From an uncultured Pseudomonadota bacterium (lineage in GTDB: Bacteria > Babelota > Babeliae > Babelales > Vermiphilaceae), in NCBI GenBank assembly GCA_964533545.1, contig CAZHJT010000003.1, positions 7,190-20,548 on the forward strand: 13,359 nt of DNA. Reading direction: 5' to 3'. The notes beneath the pieces are model-generated. The model was not told where the DNA came from. It did not search any database and saw only the letters and a list, made by a program, of their open reading frames with translations. The translations under genes were made by a program, and so were the position numbers. Positions 53-13,307 of this stretch are shown here, piece by piece (positions within the stretch are counted from its first letter, which is position 1; the number at the start of each line of letters is the position of its first letter).

Positions 53-1060
53 TTGGATGCTGGTGCTAGCAAAGGTAAACTTCTACCCATTATGTATGAT
101 GCTGCTATCATGTGGCCAATGATGGAAATGGGTGGCACGCACACGCAGTTTATTCCTGACATTTTTTTAACGCGTACTATTACACCGTTAAATGATTTTC
201 AGGTTTCTAGCGATGATCTAAAAAAAGCGGTACGCCGTGTGTTACGAAATCAAAAAGTATATCCAACCGTGCAACATCGTGATGATGCTGCAACCGTGCA
301 TGATCGCCAAGAAAACCGAGGATCTGCGGTGCTTCTGATTTCACATTCTCCAGAGCATACGCGGCATCTGCTTGATTTTATGCATACGCAAACGGTGAAA
401 AAAAATCGTAGCAAAACGGCAAGACCTTCATCATGTTGTGTGCTTTGTGATGCAAACAGTAACCAAGCATCTGCGTATGCTGCATTAGCACAGCAGTATT
501 CAACGGCAACCTTTTTACGTGCAGATACAAAGGGAAGCAATCTATTAAGCTCCCAACTGGCAGCCTATCTGCAATCGATACCAGAAAACCATGTGGTTGT
601 TCTGTCCGATGTTATGGCGGCCGAGCTGGAAGATTCACTTGATAGCCTGTTGGATACTAACGATGATTTTGACACCATACTTGGTCAGGAGACTATTAAA
701 GCTGTCGATACATCTGGTAGGAACCATGATGCACTCTACGATTCTATTAATGAACTTGAGCGCACCTATGCCTATGCGCTCTATTTTGGTTTGACGAGTG
801 ATGATTTTGTTCAGCATCCTGATCAGCCCGAGCCACAGCGTCCATTTGAGCTGCTCAATAACGGTTTGGGGGTTTGGCAGTTTAAATGTTGCACGCCGGC
901 GCACTGGCAGGAGCAGAATGTTGCTCCGGTGCTGTATCGCGTGACCGACCTGGTAAAGCTGCTCAAACGTATACCATCAAATTCTCTTGATCAGTTGATT
1001 GATCAATGGAAGCTTGCGGCGATTGCACCAGAGCGCGTCGGACTCTTTTATGCGCGATAG
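53..1060 (+). CDS. Hypothetical protein of 335 aa; no domain recognised. The 5' end is uncertain: the frame is open back to nt 2, with TTG at 53 and the first ATG at 92, so the gene may start upstream of the window.
   Basis: Long ORF with no internal stops. An acidic stretch DSLDSLLDTNDDFD sits mid-protein. The AT-rich sequence just upstream (TTTAAATGTATAAAAATAG) looks promoter-like. No family recognised from the sequence. Confidence 0.45.
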   Translation: MDAGASKGKLLPIMYDAAIMWPMMEMGGTHTQFIPDIFLTRTITPLNDFQVSSDDLKKAVRRVLRNQKVYPTVQHRDDAATVHDRQENRGSAVLLISHSPEHTRHLLDFMHTQTVKKNRSKTARPSSCCVLCDANSNQASAYAALAQQYSTATFLRADTKGSNLLSSQLAAYLQSIPENHVVVLSDVMAAELEDSLDSLLDTNDDFDTILGQETIKAVDTSGRNHDALYDSINELERTYAYALYFGLTSDDFVQHPDQPEPQRPFELLNNGLGVWQFKCCTPAHWQEQNVAPVLYRVTDLVKLLKRIPSNSLDQLIDQWKLAAIAPERVGLFYAR

Positions 1061-1375: not shown

Positions 1376-1411
1376 TTGGCCTGCCATACGAAGCTTTATG
1401 CGAAGTATGGT
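1376..1411 (-). repeat. Copy 2 of the conserved tRNA 3' trailer element.
   Basis: GGCCTGCCATACGAAGCTTTATGCGAAGTATGGTGG lies immediately 3' of tRNA-Ser, overlapping its CCA. It differs from copy 3 at one position (T/C). Confidence 0.6.
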
Positions 1412-1500
1412 GGAGAGAGAGGGATTCGAACCCTCGCGTCCGGTATAACCCAAACTCTTGCTTAGCAGGCAAGCGCTTTAAACCACTCAGCCATCTCTCC
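1408..1500 (-). tRNA. tRNA-Ser, anticodon GCU, a type II tRNA with a long variable arm.
   Basis: Reverse complement reads GGAGAGATGGCTGAGTGGTTTAAAGCGCTTGCCTGCTAAGCAAG...GAGGGTTCGAATCCCTCTCTCTCCACCA. Anticodon stem is CTTGC/GCAAG with loop CTGCTAA. T arm is GAGGG-TTCGAAT-CCCTC. CCA is encoded. Confidence 0.85.
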
Positions 1501-1600
1501 CTAATAGGCTTTGTATAAAAAGCTCTGCTAGGACTTTGAAAAGGATACGTGATTTAGCAATTTATGCAAGTAGTTCTACGTTATTTTGATCTATAGGCTA

Positions 1601-2065
1601 TTATCGTTGTAAAAGAGCGTTGATTACAGTCCATGGCCCAAGGTAAGCGAGCGTCATGGCAGTAACTTGCGTTATTCCTGATTTCAAGCTTACTTCATGA
1701 GTATCGCAGGCCTTGCTTGTCAAGGAACTTCCTACCAATGTCGTACCCATAGTAAACCCAACAAAAAGAGCCATTTCGCGGTTGTTAGGCATGCATAAGG
1801 TTGTAATTTCTTCCGCCGCCAGGCCAATTAAGCCAGCCTTGGCGCCATGTATGATATCGGTCTTAATAGTTGAAGGGATTTGGTCGCTGAGACCTCTTGC
1901 GCGTGTCATGATACTTTCACGTTTTTCTGGAGAGAGCACTTTATTTGTTATAGGCAAGCCATGTTGATTCCAAAGATCTTTTGATGGCTTGTCTTGCGAG
2001 CTGCATAATGAGACTGACAGCAACGATGCGCATGCAAAGATCAAGACATGTTTGTAGGTGAACAT
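1601..2065 (-). CDS. Small secreted protein with an N-terminal signal peptide; member P1 of the paralogous Gly/Ala-rich family.
   Basis: Hydrophobic N-terminus MFTYKHVLIFACASLLSVSLCSSQD. The motifs GAKAGLIGLAAEEI and EMALFVGFTMGTTLVGSSL align with P4 and P5 (KKAFFVGMATTSVASLIG). A TTGAAA box sits 73 nt upstream of the start codon. Confidence 0.6.
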   Translation of the reverse strand: MFTYKHVLIFACASLLSVSLCSSQDKPSKDLWNQHGLPITNKVLSPEKRESIMTRARGLSDQIPSTIKTDIIHGAKAGLIGLAAEEITTLCMPNNREMALFVGFTMGTTLVGSSLTSKACDTHEVSLKSGITQVTAMTLAYLGPWTVINALLQR

Positions 2066-2113
2066 ACAGTAATTCTTTCGATAAAAGGTGGAGTTCCTAT
2101 TATTTCACCGAAC

Positions 2114-2143
2114 AACATACTTTCGTTGAGTATAAAATTTCAA
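2114..2143 (-). promoter_or_regulatory. Putative sigma70-type promoter for P1: TTGAAA, an 18-nt spacer, then TATGTT.
   Basis: The same TTGAAA(AT) box recurs 68-73 nt upstream of the start codons of P1, P3, P4 and P5, on the minus strand at 2138-2143, 3091-3096, 4397-4402 and 5281-5286. Confidence 0.35.
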
Positions 2144-2179
2144 CAAAAAAAGCCCCGCCTTTTTTATCAGGCAGGGCTT
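2143..2179 (-). terminator. Rho-independent terminator downstream of P2. It looks the same read from either strand.
   Basis: In the minus-strand RNA the stem is GCCCUGCC / GGCGGGGC: 8 bp including one G-U pair, with a 10-nt loop, followed by a U7 tract. It lies 24 nt after the P2 stop. Confidence 0.65.
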
Positions 2180-2202
2180 TATGGGAGCGATTTTTCACTG
2201 GG

Positions 2203-2616
2203 TTAATTTTTGGTGTGGCGAGACAACTCGAATTCTGGAAGTTTAGACTTTTTAGCTTCAGCGTCTCTTACTTCTTTGATTGGGTTGTCGTGCAAAGTCC
2301 ATATCGCGCCAATAGCTTCGCCTACCAAGGCTATTGCTATGTTTGCAGGATTCAGTTCCCCTTCGGCGACGTAATCAATAGCGCCAGTAGCTACTGCTGC
2401 CAAAAGAGCAGTTGCAGCAACCGACTTCTTAGCAGAAATATCCGCGTTTTCGTGTAGCTGTTGAGATGTGTAGCGCACAAGGGTTTTGCCCGCTGCAAAA
2501 CCAGCAACGCCACTAACGGCTAACTTGAGGCGACTGTTATCTTGTGCAAACGTGGTACCTGCGCTCGTCAATACCACAAGGCTCATCAGAGAGATAAGGC
2601 TATTAGTTCTTTTCAT
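2203..2616 (-). CDS. Small secreted Gly/Ala-rich protein, family member P2. I take the start as MKRTNSLIS at 2616, not the longer ORF beginning at 2646.
   Basis: Signal-like sequence MKRTNSLISLMSLVVLTSAGTTFAQD. It contains the family motifs LAVSGVAGFAAGK and AKKSVAATALLAAVATGAI. The start overlaps the last 14 nt of P3 (ATGAAAAGAACTAA), which suggests translational coupling. Confidence 0.5.
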   Translation of the reverse strand: MKRTNSLISLMSLVVLTSAGTTFAQDNSRLKLAVSGVAGFAAGKTLVRYTSQQLHENADISAKKSVAATALLAAVATGAIDYVAEGELNPANIAIALVGEAIGAIWTLHDNPIKEVRDAEAKKSKLPEFELSRHTKN

Positions 2617-3022
2617 TAGTTGTTCCAGGGATGTAAGATGCTGCAAATGCTACGATTTGTTTGATAGCAAGATCGGTGCCAACATAGGTAGCAATGGTTG
2701 ATAGAACTTGTACCGCTTGAGACTGTAAGCTTGAGTCTTTTATTTTTTCAGCAGCTTCGCCGTTCTTTGTAACCAAAACGATAGCGCTTACGGGTATTTG
2801 TGCTGTGGTTATTGCGCTTGCAACACCAGGAGCGATAGGCGTTAGTTTGTTAGAAGCTGCTTTTGCAACCATCCCGCCACCAGTGAAAATGACTGCTGTG
2901 CCAGCGCCAAGCTTTGCACCAGCTACGACATCTTTTTTAAGCTGTTTTAAGGTGTCATGTGCGCAACTTGTACTAAGCATAGTTAATGCAGAAAGTGCTA
3001 CTACTGAAAAAGTACGTTTCAT
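2603..3022 (-). CDS. Small secreted Gly/Ala-rich protein, possibly a lipoprotein; family member P3.
   Basis: N-terminus is MKRTFSVVALSALTMLSTSCAHD. Gly-zipper-like segment VVAGAKLGAGTAVIFTGGGMVAKAAS. Strong Shine-Dalgarno AAGGAG 8 nt before the ATG. TTGAAA box 69 nt upstream. Confidence 0.6.
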   Translation of the reverse strand: MKRTFSVVALSALTMLSTSCAHDTLKQLKKDVVAGAKLGAGTAVIFTGGGMVAKAASNKLTPIAPGVASAITTAQIPVSAIVLVTKNGEAAEKIKDSSLQSQAVQVLSTIATYVGTDLAIKQIVAFAASYIPGTTNEKN

Positions 3023-3124
3023 GAAAAAGGCTCCTTAATAAGGTGAGGCTATATATTACCAGCGCATAAGCCTATTCTTTTTCATATGATTTTCAACAAA
3101 ACGTACAACAATTGCTCAGAGCGC

Positions 3125-3172
3125 CAAAAATGAGCTCAAAAGCAAAAACGGCCCTGTTTTTTAGACAAGGCC
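3125..3172 (-). terminator. Rho-independent terminator downstream of P4. It sits inside a ~50-nt block that is repeated at 4562-4603.
   Basis: In the minus-strand RNA the stem is GGCCUUG / CAGGGCC: 7 bp including one G-U pair, with a 9-nt loop, followed by GUUUUUGCUUUUG. Confidence 0.6.
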
Positions 3173-3204
3173 GCTTTTATTGTAATCGCTATTTCAGGAG
3201 TTTT

Positions 3205-4329
3205 TTATTTGCGAGAAGTGAGGATTGTTGAGCGCAGCCAAGAGGTTACAGGGCAGCCCTTTTTTTCGACCAGTTTTGGCTGTACAGTTTCTGTGGTTTG
3301 CGTTGCTGCTTCTGGCAAAATTTCTGTTGGAGTTTCGCTTGTTTTTTGCTTTGGCCAGACATAGGCGATTACATAATGACCTATAGTATAGGTAGCCAAG
3401 TCAGCAGCAAGCTGTTTAGCGGTTGTTTCAGGTGTGCGTTCGCCTTGTTGCCCGAGGAGTGATGTAGCACCTGTTGCGACTAGGCCTTTTGCAAATGCTT
3501 TCTTTTCGGTGTCACCATTTTTTTTAGCTATCTGTTCGAGCGTTAAGCCAGCACCAGCAGCGCCAATGGTGATGATAGGATTGTAGCGAACGACCGTAGG
3601 GACAGGAGTTATTGCAGCGGCAACATTACCGAGCGGTTGAATAGGTTGAGCAGAAGACCGTGTGCTTGTAGGGATCAGGGGAGCTTGATTGAGTTGAGCA
3701 GGAGTCGCTGGATTATCAGAGATAGAGCTACTACTACTACTACTGCTGGTGATTGTTGTTGTAGAACTCGCAGAAGCTTGCGTGTGTGGAATAAGGGGTA
3801 ATGTTGTTGAGGCAACTGAGTGGCCTGGGCGAGGCGATGGTGGCGAGCCGAGATGAGTTGTTGTAGTTGTAGTAGTGGTGGTAGTTGAATTACCTGAGAC
3901 AGGCGGTTGTTGGTTGTTTTGTGGCGTAGCTAGAGGAGCTGGTGTAGTTGTAGTGCTAGCGCTAGTTTGAACGTGTTCAGTAGAAGGCAATGTGAGAGTC
4001 TGGCTGGTAGAAGATGTTCCCGCAGTCGCCATTGCCGCTATGGGCTGTTGCTGTTTCGTTGCGTCGATCAGTTTGAGAACCAACGGTTTGCCCAAAATTT
4101 CAGACGTAGACTCAGTTTTTGCGATACAATATATGACCTTACCCTGACCTGTTGAGAAGAAGTAAATGGGTTTTGAATTGTGGTATACAGGCGTGTCGTT
4201 TATCAAAAGAGGATGACGAGTATAATCGCTTGCAAGGCTGGTGCTCACTATAGTCAATGTAGCAAACGCCAAGAAAAGGGTATTCAATCGCTTGCGTCCA
4301 CAAGAGCTTTGTACAGAGTGCATGTGCAT
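3205..4329 (-). CDS. Secreted protein of 374 aa; family member P4. It has an N-terminal extra domain, a long Ser/Thr/Pro mucin-like linker, and a C-terminal module homologous to P5. The start may instead be the Met two codons in, at 4323.
   Basis: Signal peptide MHSVQSSCGRKRLNTLFLAFATLTIVSTSLASD parallels the P5 N-terminus. Low-complexity runs T10 and S9, and TTPAPLATPQNNQQPP. The C-terminus YNPIITIGAAGAGLTLEQIAKKNGDTEKKAFAKGLVATGATSLLGQ aligns with P5. Confidence 0.6.
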   Translation of the reverse strand: MHMHSVQSSCGRKRLNTLFLAFATLTIVSTSLASDYTRHPLLINDTPVYHNSKPIYFFSTGQGKVIYCIAKTESTSEILGKPLVLKLIDATKQQQPIAAMATAGTSSTSQTLTLPSTEHVQTSASTTTTPAPLATPQNNQQPPVSGNSTTTTTTTTTTHLGSPPSPRPGHSVASTTLPLIPHTQASASSTTTITSSSSSSSSISDNPATPAQLNQAPLIPTSTRSSAQPIQPLGNVAAAITPVPTVVRYNPIITIGAAGAGLTLEQIAKKNGDTEKKAFAKGLVATGATSLLGQQGERTPETTAKQLAADLATYTIGHYVIAYVWPKQKTSETPTEILPEAATQTTETVQPKLVEKKGCPVTSWLRSTILTSRK

Positions 4330-4561
4330 CCCCTTATAAAAAAGTGCCAGACCTTATACGTTTTTACATGATTAAGCATACCTTTTTGCGCATTATTTTC
4401 AATGAGAAGTGCTGCTGTGTATCGTGAAGAATGTTGTCAAATGAGAGACTTTACGGTGTTGGTATTCGAATAGAAAAGTTTTTCTGCTGTCTGCGACGCA
4501 CTATTGACCCTGTTCCCCCTCTGTTGGCGTGTGCTTAAAGGGCTGTTGTGAGAACAAAAAA

Positions 4562-4603
4562 TGGGCTCAGAAGCAAAAGTGGCCCTGTTTTTTAGACAAG
4601 GCC
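4562..4603 (-). terminator. Rho-independent terminator downstream of P5. It is a duplicate of the 3125-3172 module.
   Basis: The block ATGGGCTCAGAAGCAAAAGTGGCCCTGTTTTTTAGACAAGGCC is near-identical to 3129-3172: the same GGCCCTG...CAAGGCC hairpin and U-rich 3' side in the minus sense. Confidence 0.6.
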
Positions 4604-4639
4604 CCTTTGAATGTGAAAGTTCACTGTGTCAGGAATCTT

Positions 4640-5209
4640 TTACCCGCGAGCTTTGAGCAATGAGGGTGCCGTCAAGTCCGCTCTTGATGCATTAGGTACT
4701 GGCAAAGCAGGGGTTGTTGGGGCGCTAGTTGCTTCTGGGTTGGGTGTTGTGTTTTGCGCTGCTTTTTTCTTGTTTGCTGGTGGGCAGAAAAAATTGATCG
4801 TATGGTGGATTGCAACATAGAAAAAATTGTCTAAAGCAAGCTGCGTGAAGATTGTTCCAGCAGTATGATCGCCTTGTTGTAATCTCTGTCCGATGAGTGA
4901 TGCTACGCTGGTTGTGGCCATGCCGACAAAAAAAGCCTTCTTTTCGCTCATTTCACATTTTCTTTTTGCTATTTGCTTGGTCAGTGTGCCAACAGTGGCA
5001 GCTGAAATGGTGATGGCAGGGCTGTAGTGAGCGCGTTTATCTAACTGCTGGAGTATTGTTCTGCCGGTAGCATGCAAATTGCTCGTTGCGCGTTGCGCTG
5101 CATTAGTCTGATCGCTTGCAAGGCATGCCTGTGTCGCCGTCAGTGCGGCAAACGTCAAGAACAAGATATTCAATTTCGCGCGGGCAAAAGCGCTTTGTGT
5201 AGAATGCAT
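4640..5209 (-). CDS. Secreted protein of 189 aa; family member P5.
   Basis: Signal peptide MHSTQSAFARAKLNILFLTFAALTATQACLASDQ. Core sequence YSPAITISAATVGTLTKQIAKRK..EKKAFFVGMATTSVASLIGQ is homologous to the P4 C-terminus. The upstream block AAAAAAGTG(C/T)CAGAC(C/G)TTATACG and the ATTTTCAAT box are shared with P4. Confidence 0.6.
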   Translation of the reverse strand: MHSTQSAFARAKLNILFLTFAALTATQACLASDQTNAAQRATSNLHATGRTILQQLDKRAHYSPAITISAATVGTLTKQIAKRKCEMSEKKAFFVGMATTSVASLIGQRLQQGDHTAGTIFTQLALDNFFYVAIHHTINFFCPPANKKKAAQNTTPNPEATSAPTTPALPVPNASRADLTAPSLLKARG

Positions 5210-5297
5210 GTATATGCCTCTGTAAAAAAGTGTCAGACGTTATACGATCTATACAATAAGTGTAATTTGTTGCGTACTATTTTCAATAAGGGGTCAC

Positions 5298-5612
5298 ATG
5301 GCATACAGTGAGGCTGCAACGCAGCGGTCTGTCATTGAAATTCGTGTCGCGCCTAGCTCAGGCAAACAATATTTCGCGCTCGACAAAGCGGGGCGCTTGA
5401 AATGTTACCTCCTTGCCGCACCAGAAAAAGGACAGGCTAACAAAGAGCTGGTGAAGCTGCTTGCCAAGGCGCTTGGTGTAACACAGGCTGACGTGACGAT
5501 TATTGCTGGTGCAACGGGTCGCACCAAATATGTCCGTATACCACTAACGCTTGCGCATGATGAGCTGCTGCAAAAGCTTGGTATACCAAAACAGCTTACT
5601 ATTGCGGGTTAA
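5298..5612 (+). CDS. DUF167 / YggU-family protein (UPF0235), 104 aa.
   Basis: IRVAPSSGKQ...LKCYLLAAPEKGQANKELVKLLAKALGV...VTIIAGATGRTKYVRI matches the YggU pattern (V.P.A....G...V...APP.DG.AN..L...L....V..G..R.K.I). Confidence 0.7.
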   Translation: MAYSEAATQRSVIEIRVAPSSGKQYFALDKAGRLKCYLLAAPEKGQANKELVKLLAKALGVTQADVTIIAGATGRTKYVRIPLTLAHDELLQKLGIPKQLTIAG

Positions 5613-5631: not shown

Positions 5632-6843
5632 ATGCCGTATTACGCATGGAAAGGGGTTACTCTAACGGGAGATCTGCGCAAAGGCAGCTTGTGTGCTCGA
5701 TCACAAGAGGACCTCGAGCATCAGTTGCTTGCGCGTGACATTGCGGTTATGTACAGCCGCCAGAAAAGTATACCGTGGTGGCATAGATTGCAGGCGGATA
5801 ATCAGTTTAAGATCGCTTTCTTCAGGCAGCTTACGTCACTTTTGTCGTCGGGCATTTTTTTATCAGAAGCACTGACGTTGATGAGTCAGCAGCTGCAGGG
5901 CAAGCCACGTGTACAAGAGATGATCATCGCAATAGTGGAGCATGTACAGCAGGGAACGCCATTGAGCATAGCCTTGGCGGCCTACCCGCAGATCTTTGAC
6001 CCGTTGACGATTCAGATGGCGGCCGTTGGTGGTGATACTGGCAGCCTGGCACAGGCGCTCGGTGCGTTGTGTGATGATCTTGAAATGAAGCAGGATATAC
6101 GCTCTCGTATGCGATCGGCAGCATTGTTGCCCGGCATTACTTTCCTATTTTTTATAACGATTGCAGCAGCCTTGGTGCTCCTTATTTTGCCCCGCTTTAC
6201 CGCTATTTTTTCGATGCATGGGGCAGAGGTTCCCTGGGCTACCAAGCAGTTGCTGTTGTTGAGTGACGTTCTGCGCAGCTGGGTGTCAGTGGCTGTTGTG
6301 GCGACAACGATTGTGTGCGGGGTGCTGGTGCGTTGGTATAGCAAAAGTGTGCAGGGCAAACCGATTATTGATCGCCTTGTGATGCGCTTGCCGTTTATCG
6401 GGGCGATCATGCGTCGCTATGTGATGGGCAATGCATTGCGCTCGGTCAGTATGTTGGTTGGCAGTGGCATGCCTTTAGTGAAAGCCTTGCATGTTGTTGC
6501 AAGAAACAGCAGCAATAGTCAAGTGCGGCAGCAGTTTCTGTATGTTGAACAGCAGGTTGTTGCCGGGGCATCAATGAGCCAGGCTATGCAGCAGATACAT
6601 GAAAGCATGTTCGATCCCGCTTTGATCGCCGCTATACGTCTGGCTGAAAGCTCGGCCGACCTAGCACCTGTGCTGGCACGCATCGCGGATATCTATTATG
6701 CGCAGGTGAAGAAGGATCTGCTATTGGTGACGACGCTGCTGAACCCGTGTTTGACCATTATCTTGGGGCTGATGATTACGGCACTTATCATGGCGGTGTA
6801 TGTACCGATTTTCAGTATGTCCACTATTATTGGGCAGCAATAG
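5632..6843 (+). CDS. pilC: Type IV pilus / type II secretion inner-membrane platform protein of the PilC/GspF family. I place the start at MPYYAWKG (5632), not the longer ORF from 5551 that would overlap the upstream gene.
   Basis: About 400 aa with the usual two-repeat GspF architecture and three hydrophobic transmembrane segments (ITFLFFITIAAALVLLIL, WVSVAVVATTIVCGVLV, LTIILGLMITALIMAVYVPIF). Conserved motifs LLSSGI.L.EAL and LAPVL..I. An RBS AAAGGGGAG precedes 5632. Confidence 0.8.
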   Translation: MPYYAWKGVTLTGDLRKGSLCARSQEDLEHQLLARDIAVMYSRQKSIPWWHRLQADNQFKIAFFRQLTSLLSSGIFLSEALTLMSQQLQGKPRVQEMIIAIVEHVQQGTPLSIALAAYPQIFDPLTIQMAAVGGDTGSLAQALGALCDDLEMKQDIRSRMRSAALLPGITFLFFITIAAALVLLILPRFTAIFSMHGAEVPWATKQLLLLSDVLRSWVSVAVVATTIVCGVLVRWYSKSVQGKPIIDRLVMRLPFIGAIMRRYVMGNALRSVSMLVGSGMPLVKALHVVARNSSNSQVRQQFLYVEQQVVAGASMSQAMQQIHESMFDPALIAAIRLAESSADLAPVLARIADIYYAQVKKDLLLVTTLLNPCLTIILGLMITALIMAVYVPIFSMSTIIGQQ

Positions 6844-7183: not shown

Positions 7184-7963
7184 ATGGAAGAGCATAAGCT
7201 ACCATTTGTTCTGCTTGGTGCCATGGCGCTAGCGGCAGGCTTTTATTTTCTGAGGCCTTTTTATATCGTAGAGCCCGGTTTTACGGCAATTCATTTGCGT
7301 ATGGGTAAAATCATCGCCGTGGAAAAAGAGGGCGGGATATACTTCAAGGCGCCCGTTATTGATTCGGTGGTAACGATGCCAAACGGTATCATCAAAGCGT
7401 CCATCGAGACAAGCGCATTGTCAAAAGACTTGCAGGCGATATCGATCGGTATCGATGTTAACTACAAATACACCGACGAAGCCGAGCTGTATAAAACGAC
7501 ACGCGGACGGGCTGAAGATATTATTCTGGTGCCATTCTGCCACGAAAGTATAAAAGCGGTTATTGCCTGTTACACAGCAGAAGATCTGATACAAAATAGA
7601 CATGCAGCCAAAGAGCGCATTTATGTTGATTTGAAAGAGCGTTTGCGGCCACACTTTATCGATTTTATCGAAGTGAACTTTTCACATGCCGACTTTTCTG
7701 AAGATTTTATAAAAGCGGTTGAAAGCAAGCAGATTGCGTTGCAAGAATCGATGAAAGCGAAGAACCTTACCGATAAGGTCAAAGAAACGGCAATACAGAC
7801 TAAGTTAACGGCGGATGCAGAAGCCTACTCTCAACAAGTAAAAAAACAGTCTGCAACCAAAGAGCTTGCTCAATTGAAAGCGATTGAAAAATGGGACGGT
7901 GTGTTGCCACGCGTGGTGACCGGGAGCGTTCCGTTCATTTCACTAGAGGAAGCTTCGAAATAG
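7184..7963 (+). CDS. SPFH / band-7 (prohibitin-like) membrane protein, 259 aa.
   Basis: N-terminal transmembrane helix LPFVLLGAMALAAGFYFL, followed by YIVEPGFTAIHLRMGKI, which is typical of SPFH domains. C-terminal coiled-coil-like region ending IEKWDGVLPRVVTGS, the prohibitin-type tail. RBS AAGGAG. Confidence 0.8.
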   Translation: MEEHKLPFVLLGAMALAAGFYFLRPFYIVEPGFTAIHLRMGKIIAVEKEGGIYFKAPVIDSVVTMPNGIIKASIETSALSKDLQAISIGIDVNYKYTDEAELYKTTRGRAEDIILVPFCHESIKAVIACYTAEDLIQNRHAAKERIYVDLKERLRPHFIDFIEVNFSHADFSEDFIKAVESKQIALQESMKAKNLTDKVKETAIQTKLTADAEAYSQQVKKQSATKELAQLKAIEKWDGVLPRVVTGSVPFISLEEASK

Positions 7964-8292: not shown

Positions 8293-9585
8293 TTGAACAT
8301 GCACAGTCAATCGGAAAATACGCACAATAAACAGCTACTGCAAGAAACAGGCACTCCTGCAGCCTCCGTTGCCGATACGCTTATAGCGGATCTTGTATCG
8401 GCCGAGCAGGTGCGTCAGCAGCAGAGCATGAGCTTTATTGCTTCAGAAAACCATACCTCGCAGCAGATCATGCGTATAACTGGTTCAGTGCTGACCAACA
8501 AGTATGCCGAAGGGTACCCTGGCAAGCGGTATTATGCTGGCTGTGCCGTTGTTGACGAGATTGAAACGGTTGCTATTGAGCGCTGCAAAAGACTCTTTGG
8601 TGCAGAGCATGCCAACGTGCAGCCTCATGCTGGCTGCCAAGCAAATTTTGCTGTATACCAAGCAGTGTTGAAGCCGGGCGACACGATTATGGGCATGAGT
8701 CTTGATGCGGGAGGACATTTGACCCATGGGCATGGTGTCAACGCCTCAGGCTCATTGTATAAAGCGGTACAATATGCCGTTGACCGTGATACGCAGCTGC
8801 TCGATTATGATGCAATTGAGCGTTTGGCACATGAGCATAAACCAAAATTGATTATAGCAGGCGCCTCTTCCTATTCACGTTTTATAGATTTTGAGCGCTT
8901 TGCCGTCATTGCTCGCAACGCAGGCGCGTTGCTGATGGCCGATATTGCGCACATAGCAGGTTTTGTTGCCACTGGGCTGCATTCGAGTCCGCTTGGCGTG
9001 GCAGATTTTGTGACCAGCACAACGCATAAAACATTACGTGGACCACGTGGTGGACTTATTATGTGTAAAGCACAGTACGCGCAGCATCTTGATCGGGCTA
9101 TTATTCCTGGCACGCAAGGTGGTCCATTGTTGCATGCTATTGCTGCAAAAGCGGTCGCTTTTCATGAGGCGATGCAGCCTGATTTTACGGTATACCAACA
9201 ACAGGTGCTGCTCAATGCTCGCACTATGGCCGCTACGTTTGCTGACCTTGGGTATGCAATCGTATCGGGTGGTACCGATAACCATATGTTTACACTCGAT
9301 CTGCGTTCAAAAAATATCACCGGTCTGGTGGCGCAACAGGTGCTTGAAGCGATTGGTATTACCGTCAGCCGTAGTTGCATACCGTTTGATACGCAAAAGC
9401 CTTGGATTACGAGCGGGATACGCATCGGTACGCCAGCGATGACTACGCGTGGTATGACGTCAAATACGGCAATTGAGCTCGCTCATCTTATTGATGAAGC
9501 CTTGCGCCATGCTGATGATGCAGCCTTTTTGAAACGGCTTGCAGATCAAGTACAGCATGTAGCGCTTGCTCACCGATTACCGTAG
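8293..9585 (+). CDS. glyA: Serine hydroxymethyltransferase.
   Basis: Hallmark motifs are present: IASENHTS, VLTNKYAEGYPGKRYY.GC, ANVQPH.G.QAN, LTHGH, the PLP-lysine region TSTTHKTLRGPRGGLI, and SGGTDNH. It is colinear with E. coli GlyA over its whole length. Confidence 0.9.
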   Translation: MNMHSQSENTHNKQLLQETGTPAASVADTLIADLVSAEQVRQQQSMSFIASENHTSQQIMRITGSVLTNKYAEGYPGKRYYAGCAVVDEIETVAIERCKRLFGAEHANVQPHAGCQANFAVYQAVLKPGDTIMGMSLDAGGHLTHGHGVNASGSLYKAVQYAVDRDTQLLDYDAIERLAHEHKPKLIIAGASSYSRFIDFERFAVIARNAGALLMADIAHIAGFVATGLHSSPLGVADFVTSTTHKTLRGPRGGLIMCKAQYAQHLDRAIIPGTQGGPLLHAIAAKAVAFHEAMQPDFTVYQQQVLLNARTMAATFADLGYAIVSGGTDNHMFTLDLRSKNITGLVAQQVLEAIGITVSRSCIPFDTQKPWITSGIRIGTPAMTTRGMTSNTAIELAHLIDEALRHADDAAFLKRLADQVQHVALAHRLP

Positions 9586-10476
9586 AAAGCCTTTGAGGAA
9601 ATCGAGGTTGAGCGGTTTAGGCTCCTTTTTTGGGTTGCTGGGGTTACTGTAGATTGGTGTATAGCCGGCAGATTGCAAAATCTCTTGCACGCGCGCAATG
9701 TGTGACCCGCCGGTTACTGCAATGATAGTGGCACACTCATCTGCGTCAAGAATGCTTTGAGCAAGCTTAAGATCGAGTAAGGCGCTATCAAAGATCAAAA
9801 GCCGTTTTAAGAGTTGCAAGCGATTATTGGTTAAGCAGCCTTGATGTACATAGTCGGCCATCGATCGCTTTGGTTCTTTCATCAAATTAAGTTCCTGCAT
9901 ATGTGGGTGAATCTTTTTCAAGATTCTTTCGCGGTAGGCTCTCAGCGCTGCACAACATTTTCTATATTTCACAATGTCGGCAATGGCTGTATTGATTTCA
10001 TCGACAATGTCGCCAACCATGAGACCGCACGTTGAGGGGAAATCATGAATTTTTTTATGTGCATTGTTGAGTAGAGGTCCTAATGCCGCAACGCGGCAGT
10101 AACGATATTCAACGTTGTCCACTTGAAGACCTTTGCGAGAGCAGCTTTGAGCAAGTCCGCCTAAAATGCCCCCTCGTGAATTGATTTGAAATCGCCTATA
10201 GCCCCCATTGGCGCCAGTTTTTGTGCTACTTAAATCTTCAAGAATAATTTTTGAAGCTGTTTTGTCTTGTTTGTGGAGGAAATCTTTTACACAAAATAGT
10301 TGGGCAGCATTGGCGCTATTTTTTTTGTCATGAAAGTCACTGAGCCCAATAAAGCGTTGCTTTTTGCCAGAAGCAGGGTTGATGCGCTCAAGTACAATAA
10401 CTTGGTAAATAAAGGTGTAGAGTGGCCGATTGCACAGCAGGGCACACAGGAGTAGGCAACCTATACTCTTTTTCAT
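9577..10476 (-). CDS. Secreted hypothetical protein, 299 aa. It may belong to the TraB/GumN/Tiki-like fold, but that is weak.
   Basis: Signal peptide MKKSIGCLLLCALLC. An N-terminal motif FIGLSDFHD and a C-terminal motif IIAVTGGSHI resemble the GxxH and GxGH signature pair of that superfamily. RBS GGAGAGG. Its 3' end overlaps the glyA stop by 9 nt, convergently. Confidence 0.5.
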   Translation of the reverse strand: MKKSIGCLLLCALLCNRPLYTFIYQVIVLERINPASGKKQRFIGLSDFHDKKNSANAAQLFCVKDFLHKQDKTASKIILEDLSSTKTGANGGYRRFQINSRGGILGGLAQSCSRKGLQVDNVEYRYCRVAALGPLLNNAHKKIHDFPSTCGLMVGDIVDEINTAIADIVKYRKCCAALRAYRERILKKIHPHMQELNLMKEPKRSMADYVHQGCLTNNRLQLLKRLLIFDSALLDLKLAQSILDADECATIIAVTGGSHIARVQEILQSAGYTPIYSNPSNPKKEPKPLNLDFLKGFLR

Positions 10477-10718: not shown

Positions 10719-11321
10719 TTATTCTTTGCCTTCAGTACTTTTCTCTGTTGATGGGGTTCTTGTGCCAACAAGTCTGCGCGTTTCGCCCATAAAGTGAAAT
10801 AGGCCATATGAACCAGGGATTAGCGTTTCAGCGGTCGCTTGGGTAATAGTTGCATTTGCTTCTAAAAAGGCTTTGTGTCCTACGACGTTGTTGCCACATC
10901 TGTCGGTGTAACGGACGCCCATAGGGGTAAGTAGGTCTTTAAGTTTGAGAGCTGCTGCTTTGGTAAGTAATTTCGCTTTTTCTTCGCTGTATGTTGTTTT
11001 TGTCATAGAGGTTATAAGCGCATCATGAGCACTTCTATACTCGTTTGAGTTTTTGGTGTGCTGAACAAGGACTGCAATGTTTTTTGCGGTTGTAGAGTCA
11101 AAGCCAAAGTTGGGTTCTTTGAAAGCGGCTAAGCGTTTTTCTTCTGTGCGGTATGTTGCCAGAGCTTGGTTTTTGTCAGCATGTTCTAAATCTTTACCTG
11201 CTTCGACCATTTGGCTGATGCCCACTTTATAGGCTGCTAGATCTTGCTGATCAAGTAGGATGGCGGCAGCGTTTGCTGAAACAATGCAGGCAACGAGCGT
11301 TGCTTTGCGTAACAATGACAT
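10719..11321 (-). CDS. Secreted hypothetical protein, 200 aa.
   Basis: Signal peptide MSLLRKATLVACIVSANAAA. Lys/Ala-rich with predicted helical segments. No family recognised. Confidence 0.5.
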   Translation of the reverse strand: MSLLRKATLVACIVSANAAAILLDQQDLAAYKVGISQMVEAGKDLEHADKNQALATYRTEEKRLAAFKEPNFGFDSTTAKNIAVLVQHTKNSNEYRSAHDALITSMTKTTYSEEKAKLLTKAAALKLKDLLTPMGVRYTDRCGNNVVGHKAFLEANATITQATAETLIPGSYGLFHFMGETRRLVGTRTPSTEKSTEGKE

Positions 11322-11793: not shown

Positions 11794-11826
11794 GGCCTGC
11801 CATACGAAGCTTTACGCGAAGTATGG
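11794..11826 (-). repeat. Copy 3 of the conserved tRNA 3' trailer element, here following tmRNA.
   Basis: GGCCTGCCATACGAAGCTTTACGCGAAGTATGG overlaps the tmRNA CCA end. Confidence 0.6.
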
Positions 11827-12248
11827 TGGAGGCGACGGGAATCGAACCCGTGTCCGCATTATCTCAAATTACTGGTACTCCATGCACAGTCTTTGCTAGT
11901 TCCTGACAACGGCTTCAAAGACAACGCATCGCTATCAGATCGGTTTTGTGATACTAACCACGTTACAGAACCAAAAAACCTTATGTGGCAGTCCCATTTG
12001 GGTAATACGAGTTACAGCAACTAATAGGCACGTCACTGTAACAAGCAATCAAACTAGAACTAGCTAGATTTAAGCGAAAGCCACCATTGAAGATGAGTTT
12101 GCTGAGAATCCAGAAGCTACTAAGTTTGAAATTGCATCTCTTGTAGAGTTTGCATTTACTGTTTTAACCAATTCTTTAACGAGCACTCAGTCAACGCTCG
12201 GCATGCCCCTATAACTCTCAACAACACGTCGAAACCATGTACGCCCCC
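11824..12248 (-). ncRNA. ssrA: tmRNA (SsrA), about 425 nt.
   Basis: In the minus sense the 5' end reads GGGGGCGTACATGGTTTCGACG and the 3' end reads GGACACGGGTTCGATTCCCGTCGCCTCCACCA, a tRNA-like T arm plus acceptor. The acceptor stem GGGGGCG/CGCCUCC contains a G3:U pair, the alanine identity element. The conserved GGGCATGCCGAG matches the region around pseudoknot 1. The tag ORF begins at GCAAAC and ends TAA, giving ...ANSSSMVAFA. smpB is adjacent. Confidence 0.85.
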
Positions 12249-12361: not shown

Positions 12362-12820
12362 TTAGTACTTATAAACACCCTTGATCTCGCGCCTTGTCTC
12401 GCGGTCAATATCGCGATCCTTGATTGCCTGCTTTTTGCCAGCCGCTTTTTTAGCCTTACAGACGCCCAGCTCAACCTTGACCAGATTCTTGTCGTTGAAA
12501 TAAAGCTTCAGAGGGACCATAGTGATACCCTTTTGGGCAATATCGCCAACAATACGATTTAATTCACGTTTTTTCAGCAAAAGCTTACGTGAACGTTCAG
12601 CTTGGTCATCACGCTTGCTGTACGCCTGTTGGTAAGGGCTGATTTTACAATTTATGAGAAACAGCTCGCCTTGCTTGATGGTCGCAAAGGCAGCGATAAG
12701 AGATACTTGGCCGGCGCGCAAAGATTTTACCTCATCGCCAGTGAGCACGATGCCTGCTTCTAGCTTGTCGAGAATCTCGTATTCGAAAAATGCTTTTTTG
12801 TTCTGCGCAATAACTTTCAT
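12362..12820 (-). CDS. smpB: SsrA-binding protein SmpB. I place the start at MKVIAQNKK (12820), not the longer ORF from 12865.
   Basis: IAQNKKAFFEYEILDKLEAGIVLTGDEVKSLRAG matches the SmpB N-terminal consensus. The C-terminal basic tail is DRDIDRETRREIKG. It lies next to ssrA. Confidence 0.85.
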   Translation of the reverse strand: MKVIAQNKKAFFEYEILDKLEAGIVLTGDEVKSLRAGQVSLIAAFATIKQGELFLINCKISPYQQAYSKRDDQAERSRKLLLKKRELNRIVGDIAQKGITMVPLKLYFNDKNLVKVELGVCKAKKAAGKKQAIKDRDIDRETRREIKGVYKY

Positions 12821-12824
12821 GTTT

Positions 12825-13307
12825 CTATAGATCCTTTTGTTCTTGTTCTCGAATAAACTTTTCAAAGAGAGACTTTACCAGGGGGTAGAGTAGGCAGGCA
12901 ACGCATAGACCCACTATATTACCGCCAACAATGAAAGACCAAATCGAAATATTTGATGCGCCCAGTAAGCTTGCCACTCGGGTAGTTATTGGCTCTATAA
13001 AGCTAGGGTTGCAGGCAGCCGTATCGATGCCACCGAGCCTGCAGAGGAGAAATTGACCGGCATGGTAATCGAGAGCGTAGATGGGCAGCATAGTCCATGG
13101 ATTGTTGATAAGCCATGCAGCAGCAAATACCGCTGCGCATTCAAGCCCTAGAAGCCATGACAAGGTAAATATCATAACCGTATGCAGCCCTACAAAAGGG
13201 GAGAAGGCTATAAAGGTGCCTATGCAGAATGAACGGGCCAGTTTTTTTGGCGATTTACCTGGTTGCACCAACCGCGAAAGGTTGTTTTTTAAGCGCTGTT
13301 TTATCAT
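12825..13307 (-). CDS. DUF2062-family membrane protein, 160 aa.
   Basis: KSPKKLARSFCIGTFIAFSPFVGLHTVMIFTLSWLL...NNPWTMLPIYALDYHAGQ matches the DUF2062 pattern (P..LA.S.A.G.F....P..G.......NPWT.....Y). RBS TAGGGAAA. Its stop is 5 nt from the smpB start, so the two are probably in one operon. Confidence 0.6.
   Translation of the reverse strand: MIKQRLKNNLSRLVQPGKSPKKLARSFCIGTFIAFSPFVGLHTVMIFTLSWLLGLECAAVFAAAWLINNPWTMLPIYALDYHAGQFLLCRLGGIDTAACNPSFIEPITTRVASLLGASNISIWSFIVGGNIVGLCVACLLYPLVKSLFEKFIREQEQKDL

Follow-up and report, generated by a model that had tools for sequence, protein, structure and literature searches.

The stretch of DNA studied here, 13,359 nucleotides of contig CAZHJT010000003.1 from an uncultured bacterium of the family Vermiphilaceae (hereafter the window, 13.4 kb), carries five open reading frames (ORFs), P1 to P5, between its tRNA-Ser(GCT) and DUF167/YggU genes. 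Our analysis suggests that this region is a clade-restricted, fast-evolving array of genes for exported proteins, grown in a gap that is elsewhere gene-free (~100-300 bp); we would put the probability of this reading at about 0.55. An earlier sequence-only reading of the window had described five consecutive genes on the minus strand, and all five ORFs are indeed present on that strand: P1 (1601..2065; 154 aa), P2 (2203..2616; 137 aa from the ATG at 2616), P3 (2603..3022; 139 aa), P4 (3205..4323; 372 aa when begun at the ATG aligned with the P5 start) and P5 (4640..5209; 189 aa). P1, P2 and P3 are ORFans with export-signal-like N-termini; P1 has an ortholog in the related contig L009, and P3 has orthologs in L001, L003 and L009 (phmmer 1e-45). 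Exact copies of all five products are present in a public protein collection. P1 to P5 are real genes, since their ORFs are kept in at least six related contigs with a ratio of nonsynonymous to synonymous substitution rates (dN/dS) below 1. The description of their products as 'small' and 'Gly/Ala-rich' was overstated: P4 has 372 residues, and glycine plus alanine make up 14-15% of P1 and P4 and 21-24% of P2, P3 and P5.

Both boundaries of the array belong to a conserved backbone. tRNA-Arg(ACG) and tRNA-Ser(GCT) lie at 1249-1500 of the window, the latter (1408..1500, minus strand; ARAGORN and Rfam) forming one edge of the array, and the DUF167/YggU gene (5298..5612, plus strand; Pfam) forms the other, directly followed by a gene for a T2SSF/PilC-type platform protein (5632-6843). 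The order tRNA-Ser(TGA), tRNA-Arg(ACG), tRNA-Ser(GCT), a gap of 81-321 bp, and DUF167-T2SSF is found in 14 of the 15 distant Dependentiae loci scanned for tRNAs (L006, L008, L013, L016, L024, L027, L028, L029, L032, L036, L040, L042, L044 and L046). T2SSF comes directly next in every locus with a DUF167 of at least ~43% identity and enough flank (29 loci), and tRNA-Leu(CAA), further along the same backbone, is likewise kept across distant Dependentiae-like contigs. A metagenome scan seeded with DUF167 yielded 80 loci, the nearest DUF167 being 59% identical, and none of them encodes a member of the P4/P5 family described below. In the array clade, the distance from tRNA-Ser(GCT) to DUF167 is 3797 bp in the window, 3043 bp in L003, ~2.7 kb in L001 and ~2.3 kb in L010, and the array locus occupies the same place in L001, L002, L003 and L009-L012. 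The array is a clade-specific gain within a divergent promoter gap that is empty in most lineages.

DUF167 and T2SSF also stand side by side in at least 20 loci that lack the array, so the adjacency of T2SSF to the array is not evidence that P1 to P5 are substrates of a type II secretion or pilus system; we rejected a functional link to T2SSF, the adjacency being ancestral backbone. The T2SSF protein of the window is 91% identical to its counterpart in 'Candidatus Dependentiae bacterium SZAS-2' (L003), and its other matches are four metagenome-assembled genomes at 30-35% identity and one at 26%. This places the organism among the Dependentiae (TM6), whose members depend obligately on protist hosts. 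Horizontal transfer was also rejected on composition: the array, situated 5' of tRNA-Ser on its promoter side, has a GC content of 0.43-0.49 and its flanks 0.41-0.53. A promoter-like sequence (cTTGCATAAA...N...ATCCTTT) upstream of tRNA-Ser(GCT) is kept from the window (1501-1600) to the outgroup with the 59%-identical DUF167 (L003 6624-6720; L010 about 4010-4086; L013 6830-6905). No hairpin was found downstream of P1 in the fold scan, and with no terminator ahead of tRNA-Ser, P1 transcripts may run into the tRNA genes.

The N-termini of the five proteins point to export. The proposal of signal peptides ending in x-Asp holds on a heuristic reading, with CSS|QD in P1, TFA|QD in P2, SCA|HD in P3 and LA|SD in both P4 and P5. 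Inspection and hydropathy, again heuristic, agree with the features expected for Sec signal peptidase I: a Lys or Arg lies within the first 5-13 residues, Kyte-Doolittle peaks over 19 residues reach 1.26-1.66 in residues 4-31, and the residue pairs at -3/-1 are C/S, T/A, S/A, S/A and C/A in P1 to P5, respectively. This N-terminal segment is the most hydrophobic 19-residue stretch of P1, P4 and P5; P2 and P3 have a slightly stronger internal one. From these N-termini we infer that P1 to P5 cross the inner membrane via Sec, and they are most likely exported envelope or host-interface proteins. The role as adhesins or host-interaction proteins put forward in the sequence-only reading is a conjecture. 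A lipobox Cys is not conserved, there being none at that position in P2, P4 or P5; LSTSC|A of P3 fits a loose lipobox, but the L001 ortholog has Tyr there. The L009 ortholog of P3, whose N-terminus is cut off at the contig end, reads TND downstream, as in L001, and not AHD as in the window. We also rejected type IV pilins and type II secretion (T2SS) pseudopilins as candidates: these carry a class III signal peptide (a short basic leader, G|F/M-x-x-x-E and about 20 hydrophobic residues), and the G-F/M-xxx-E motif is in none of the five N-termini.

TTGAAA lies 68-73 nt upstream of the start codon of P1, P3, P4 and P5, as the sequence-only reading had noticed, and it forms part of a longer box: TTGAAA-N15-18-TAnnnT has four matches on both strands of the window, with 0.95 expected, and all four stand before these genes. 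They are, on the minus strand, TTGAAA-N18-TATGTT for P1 (2114..2143), TTGAAA-N16-TAGGCT for P3 (3069..3096), TTGAAA-N16-TATGCT for P4 (4375..4402) and TTGAAA-N16-TACACT for P5 (5259..5286), the last being back-to-back with the start of DUF167. Across eight contigs, 19 of 19 independently promoted P-type genes have a TTGAAA-N16-18-TAnnnT box, and an alignment of ten upstream regions shows little or no variation in TTGAAA or in the T, A and T of the -10 hexamer. The same box is also found before an IS630-like transposase gene in L003 and scattered through other loci; by its sequence it reads as a generic sigma-70-like promoter, and it does not imply an array-specific regulator. Each unit is probably expressed independently, and strongly.

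The hairpin and U-tract terminators proposed after P5, P4 and P2 were borne out by folding (81- or 66-nt folds, -24 to -27 kcal/mol, z -3.2 to -4.7). The one after P2 (2149..2180, minus strand) has a 12-bp stem and a U7 tract (-25.4 kcal/mol, z -4.7) and is conserved in L009; the P4 module (3119..3183, minus strand; -27.3 kcal/mol, z -4.1) is 85% identical over 65 nt to the P5 module (4550..4614, minus strand; -24.3 kcal/mol, z -3.2). P3 does lack a terminator of its own before P2, and P2 has no promoter of its own; the P2 ATG overlaps the last P3 codons by 14 nt, which argues that P3 and P2 are co-transcribed, and they are probably translationally coupled. The array can thus be parsed into four predicted transcription units, P5, P4, P3-P2 and P1, three of them closed by hairpin terminators. 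The tandem duplication proposed for P4 and P5 is visible at the DNA level: besides the terminator modules, 108 nt that span the leader and the 5' end of the coding sequence are 76% identical, and promoter, leader and terminator were all part of the duplication. The spacer between P4 and P3, which holds a terminator, a promoter and a leader, is 89-92% identical to those of L003 and L001, the level of housekeeping coding sequences, and the P genes themselves are 73-83% identical. A stretch of about 80-100 nt ahead of the P4 -35 box (AAACTTTTCTATT..TCTCATTTGA..CATTCTTCACGA.ACAC..CAGCACTTCT; window 4403-4500, L003 8560-8650, L001 about 2760-2856) is well conserved in three genomes and may be an upstream regulatory element.

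The sequence-only reading took the five proteins for paralogs. That is right for P4 and P5; weak profile links make it plausible for P1 and P3, and for P2 it has no support. P4 and P5, the only significant pair in blastp (7e-15 over ~100 C-terminal residues and 5e-8 over the N-terminus), are by their alignment certainly tandem paralogs. The (E/K)KKAF.. block that had been taken as common to all five is solid in P4 and P5 and recognisable in P1, and it has no statistical support in P2 and P3. We compared the mature regions further by hhalign, with profiles built from relatives in other genomes and with column-shuffled and reversed controls. A nine-sequence profile of the C-terminal domain shared by P4 and P5 (the C-domain) matched P1 over 68 columns at E 9e-4 (probability 23%, z 8.5; reversed control 11.6, at background), the score rising from 22.3 to 25.0 once more distant members were added. 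P1 keeps about 9 of the 14 positions that are invariant in the family, and of the 2044 ORFs in 93 loci it is the non-member that best matches the C-domain hidden Markov model (HMM; E 0.012). A 132-aa protein encoded in L010 matched both P1 (E 1.8e-3, z 7.6; Smith-Waterman (SW) z 6.1) and the P3 profile (E 1.4e-3, z 7.8; SW z 5.2), and a 137-aa L010 protein matched the C-domain weakly (E 7e-3, z 3.6; SW z 4.2). These profile links make P1 and P3 probable remote relatives of P4 and P5, P3 only by way of the L010 132-aa protein.

The same comparisons gave little for P2. Its mature region reached z of at most 3.0 against every other mature family, none of the scores being significant, and the best of them, with the L010 132-aa protein, was beaten by the reversed-sequence control (18.2 vs 16.5). 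Against P3, the mature region of P2 scored no better than 80 of 100 shuffles, and the blastp match between the two (E 1e-3 to 2e-2 in a five-protein database) covers the signal peptide only. The C-domain profile did not match P3 significantly in hhalign either, the reversed control scoring higher. The two small L010 genes have 95-nt upstream stretches that are 78% identical (shuffled null 51 +/- 4%) and mature proteins that are mutually unrecognisable, which indicates that duplicates at this locus can lose detectable protein similarity.

The C-domain itself appears to be new, and it is very narrowly distributed. The family had gone unrecognised in the sequence-only reading and had been judged lineage-specific. 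P1 to P5 match no known family: Pfam, NCBIfam and PHROGs returned nothing meaningful for them, for the L010 proteins or for one outgroup protein (P0016), and a sequence-profile search of the PDB with the C-domain stayed at noise level (E >= 0.19). The glycine-zipper families that had been suggested (Gly-zipper_YMGG, Gly-zipper_Omp and Rick_17kDa_Anti) did not match any of the five in a Pfam-A hmmscan with E up to 10, the best other matches being noise at E >= 0.013. The restriction to one lineage was confirmed by an exhaustive HMMER search, in which the C-domain occurs in seven proteins among 1.84 billion representatives. P5, searched by word index against 5.8 billion proteins, returned itself and one 70%-identical protein, the L010 132-aa protein returned only itself, and a scan of viral contigs with P5 found no match. 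Every C-domain member with a readable contig adjoins DUF167-T2SSF.

Family members open with a signal peptide and continue with a variable N-terminal region and a Ser/Thr/Pro-rich linker, after which come the C-domain of ~95 residues, a Lys-rich stretch and a low-complexity tail. In P4, the signal peptide is followed by an N-domain (~4039-4227), a poly-Thr/Ser/Pro linker with poly-T and poly-S runs (~3616-4038), the C-domain (3325-3615) and a tail; in P5, a short spacer separates the signal peptide from the C-domain (4754-5056), and the tail that follows is rich in Lys and in Pro/Thr. A GC-skew spike of +0.39 at 3501-4000 coincides with the P4 linker and is an effect of codon composition, not a replication signal. 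AlphaFold2 (AF2) modelled the C-domain from nine sequences with a mean predicted local distance difference test score (pLDDT) of 78.9 and a predicted template modelling score (pTM) of 0.66, with helices at residues 13-32, 38-59 and 66-90; the full-length P5 model, made from three sequences, was unusable (pLDDT 39.9). The C-domain is thus predicted to be a previously undescribed up-down-up three-helix bundle. Its 14 invariant columns (nine sequences) include a small-residue stripe, A-x3-G-x3-T-x3-S, on helix 2 (A41, G45, T49, S53) and a polar stripe, Q-x3-D-x3-Y, on helix 3 (Q72, D76, Y80). In the alignment of nine members, the loop between helices 1 and 2 and the stretch after helix 3 are rich in Lys and Arg and the loop between helices 2 and 3 is neutral, a pattern that would fit a three-pass membrane topology, although hydropathy does not support one: Kyte-Doolittle means over 19 residues are 1.14 and 1.07 for helices 2 and 3 of P5 and below 1.0 for those of P4. 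A single segment in each of P2, P3 and the small L010 proteins reaches 1.6-1.7 (1.63-1.73, which is transmembrane level).

The comparison between genomes allows part of the history of the array to be read. In a tree of C-domains, the P4 orthologs group together, as do the P5 orthologs, with the single-copy proteins P0015-17 outside, so the duplication of P4 and P5 took place before the genomes of the window, L001 and L003 diverged. P4 had been thought to have gained its N-domain and linker after the duplication, a polarity that has to be reversed. An N-terminal region and a Ser/Thr/Pro linker are present in all three outgroup proteins (P0015-17) and in the L003 ortholog of P5 (270 aa), which makes the long form ancestral; it is P5 of the window that was truncated, having lost both parts. 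The N-domain of the window's P4 has relatives in the L003 orthologs of P4 (SW z 34.6) and P5 (z 3.3) and in P0017 (z 4.0), and in the L001 ortholog of P4 it is replaced by unrelated sequence. Gene conversion between the C-domains of P4 and P5 was rejected, the tree separating the P4 from the P5 orthologs. In L003, the last codons of the P4 and P5 orthologs (..PRG*/..ARG*) and ~75 nt downstream, including the terminator, are near-identical (7370-7450 and 8740-8830) and their C-domains are 41% identical, which suggests local gene conversion at the 3' ends.

The array also differs from its surroundings in rate and in gene content. Compared with L003 and L001, P3, P4 and P5 have dN/dS values of 0.46-0.64 (P3 0.51-0.54), against 0.09-0.13 for DUF167 and T2SSF, and their dN is 5-10 times the flank value; the proposal of a diversifying family is in keeping with P3-P5 evolving at about five times the flank rate by dN/dS. 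P2, with a dN/dS of 0.115 against L009, is the sole slowly evolving member. The comparison of strains that had been suggested showed copy-number variation, with three genes in L001, L003 and L010 and five in the window. The P2-P1 pair (~1 kb) is present in the window and in L009 and absent from L001 and L003, in which a different terminator stands after P3, with the conserved sequence upstream of tRNA-Ser next to it.

Several observations weigh against our reading of the region as a rapidly diversifying array of related exported proteins. Relaxed constraint would explain a dN/dS below 1 as well as diversifying selection would. The hhalign probabilities of the remote links are low (5-23%), the profiles behind them are thin (1-9 sequences), and shuffled columns make a lenient null where proteins are rich in helices. 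P2 has no significant link to any member (z <= 2.4), and the P4/P5 helices, with a hydropathy of <= 1.14, do not reach the usual transmembrane threshold, so that a membrane-embedded anchor is not supported.

Two alternatives concern how far kinship extends within the array. All five genes, P2 included, might derive from one founder by serial tandem duplication, with promoter and signal peptide kept and the mature parts diverged, which we regard as a serious possibility, if one short of even odds. All of them lie within one formerly empty gap, they share a promoter architecture and an A-x-D end of the signal peptide, the N-termini of P2 and P3 are alike, and a chain of weak links runs from P3 through the L010 132-aa protein, P1 and the C-domain to the L010 137-aa protein; the small L010 genes likewise kept similar upstream regions while their proteins became unrecognisable. 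The links are, however, transitive and each is weak, the likeness of P2 and P3 stops at the signal peptide and their mature score is matched by most shuffles, the reversed controls did better than both the best P2 score and the match of the C-domain profile to P3, and P2 stayed at noise against all other mature families. Somewhat more doubtful is a mixture of one true family (P4 and P5, perhaps P1) with unrelated small envelope proteins (P2 and P3) that settled in a permissive gap and look alike by composition. Exported helical proteins rich in Ala, Gly, Ser and Thr would supply such a likeness, P2 and P3 are at noise level against the P4/P5 domain both pairwise and by profile, P2 is under a different constraint (dN/dS 0.115 vs 0.5), and P2-P1 forms a separate 1-kb unit of presence and absence. 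Such a mixture sits poorly with the same promoter and leader on P3 and the small L010 genes and with the link of the L010 132-aa protein to both P3 and P1, and protein searches found no homolog of these proteins elsewhere that could serve as a source of import.

Other alternatives concern what the proteins do, or whether they are made at all. They could be secreted membrane-active effectors or toxins whose three-helix or helical-hairpin modules insert into membranes of the host or of competitors, in the manner of chlamydial Inc proteins or glycine-zipper pore formers, perhaps after further export by the neighbouring type II/type IV-pilus machinery. The helices of 20-25 residues with small-xxx-small stripes, the charge pattern shared by all nine members (basic loop 1-2 and post-helix-3 stretch, neutral loop 2-3), the transmembrane-level segments of the small members (1.63-1.73) and the host-dependent lifestyle of the phylum (PMC6561590) would all suit this proposal. 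We nevertheless consider it quite improbable: helix hydropathy in P4 and P5 is below transmembrane level, no pore-former or Inc family matched, the T2SSF neighbour is backbone also present in at least 20 loci that lack the array, and there is no conserved immunity-like partner, P3 occurring without P2 in L001 and L003. By far the least probable, and effectively refuted, is the reading of the ORFs as non-functional, whether as annotation noise or as pseudogenes that decay in a gap evolving fast. Their ORFan status and raised dN/dS could be read in that way, but the ORFs are intact in 3-7 independent genomes at dS 0.3-0.9 and dN/dS 0.12-0.64, each unit has a conserved promoter, ribosome-binding site and terminator, the intergenic signals are 74-92% conserved, and the C-domain has its 14 invariant columns in nine sequences and a confident AF2 model.

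The ancestral layout is the one seen in the long members: signal peptide, variable N-domain, Ser/Thr/Pro-rich linker, C-domain and Lys-rich tail. The three-helix module might serve as a constant anchor or oligomerisation unit at the envelope, possibly in the membrane, with the variable head presented on its flexible Ser/Thr/Pro stalk toward the periplasm, the cell surface or the host. P1 and P3 would be headless, strongly diverged descendants of the same founder gene. A bolder and, on balance, unlikely version is the birth of a gene family in place, in which the founder arose, de novo or from an untraceable source, in a single Dependentiae lineage within the divergent promoter gap of ~150 bp that separates tRNA-Ser(GCT) from DUF167, and was duplicated in tandem with its promoter and signal peptide, the mature parts diverging beyond recognition; this would have produced a new three-helix module, possibly membrane-inserting, with swappable heads directed toward a protist host.

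The remainder of the window holds a tRNA-Leu gene, an SPFH protein gene, glyA, two ORFans, genes for a GIY-YIG protein and a DUF2062 protein, a tmRNA gene and smpB. The ORF at 53-1060 (plus strand) is the C-terminal part of a 550-aa L003 protein (L003 4480-6132), its listed TTG start probably being internal; by eye, the N-terminal half of the L003 protein and the preceding ORF resemble a family-2 glycosyltransferase. The two ORFans (9577-10476, 299 aa, and 10719-11321, 200 aa, both on the minus strand) have hydrophobic signal-peptide-like N-termini and no Pfam match, and close relatives of the 299-aa protein were found in Logan assemblies only. The tmRNA (11824-12248, minus strand) encodes an unusually long tag of 27 residues (ANSTRDAISNLVASGFSANSSSMVAFA), which differs by one residue in L003, and smpB (12362-12865, minus strand) adjoins it. 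The IS630-like transposase ORF of L003 (18825-19912, 344 aa) lies just outside the region homologous to the window, with a TTGAAA-N16-TAnnCT box ahead of it.

The Dependentiae live in obligate association with protists, as parasites or symbionts, and to our knowledge their host-interaction proteins are almost entirely unknown. If the proteins of this array sit at the host interface, they would be candidate host-range determinants. A backbone of tRNA-Ser and DUF167-T2SSF that is conserved phylum-wide, with the gap filled in one clade, offers a clean comparative example, and the locus, sharply bounded in an otherwise empty gap, is a tractable case for studying how an ORFan family originates and diverges. 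What is new here is the protein family and not the kind of locus: arrays of secreted ORFans are to be expected in the phylum, and we see no evidence of a new mechanism.

Comparison with known systems places the array near several of them. Glycine-zipper outer-membrane lipoproteins are also small and have Gly/Ala-rich helical segments after a signal peptide, but P1 to P5 have neither a match to their HMMs nor a conserved lipobox Cys, and the C-domain has an A-x3-G-x3-T-x3-S stripe in a three-helix bundle in place of a GxxxGxxxG zipper. Chlamydial Inc proteins are lineage-specific, fast-evolving and often tandemly encoded small proteins of intracellular bacteria with an adjacent pair of hydrophobic helices. 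They are type III substrates without a Sec signal peptide, whereas the N-termini in the array are Sec-like; there is no sequence similarity, the Inc bilobed hydrophobic domain of two transmembrane-grade helices was not found (P2 and P3 have one segment of ~1.7 each), and no type III secretion gene lies within the window. The variable head, poly-Thr/Ser/Pro linker and constant C-terminal module of P4 and most other members recall stalked adhesins with mucin-like Ser/Thr/Pro linkers, but the C-domain is not a known anchor and lacks the features of an LPXTG motif, a beta-barrel, a type IX secretion C-terminal domain or a lipobox. As a variable, clade-specific block beside tRNA genes whose content differs from strain to strain, the locus resembles a tRNA-associated genomic island; it differs in its place, a divergent promoter gap 5' of tRNA-Ser, and in having the GC content of its flanks, and the window contains no integrase ORF and its repeat list no direct repeat of the tRNA 3' end. 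The closest parallel in kind lies within the phylum. In Chromulinavorax destructans, 44% of coding sequences have predicted signal peptides, and this subset is enriched in ORFans (PMC6561590). These ORFans have no sequence kinship with the array, the P4/P5 family being limited to a single locus in a single clade of genus or family level, but they share with it the phylum, Sec-type N-termini, the lack of recognisable domains and presumed roles at the envelope or toward the host. Their abundance in C. destructans suggests that an array such as P1 to P5 is typical for the phylum.

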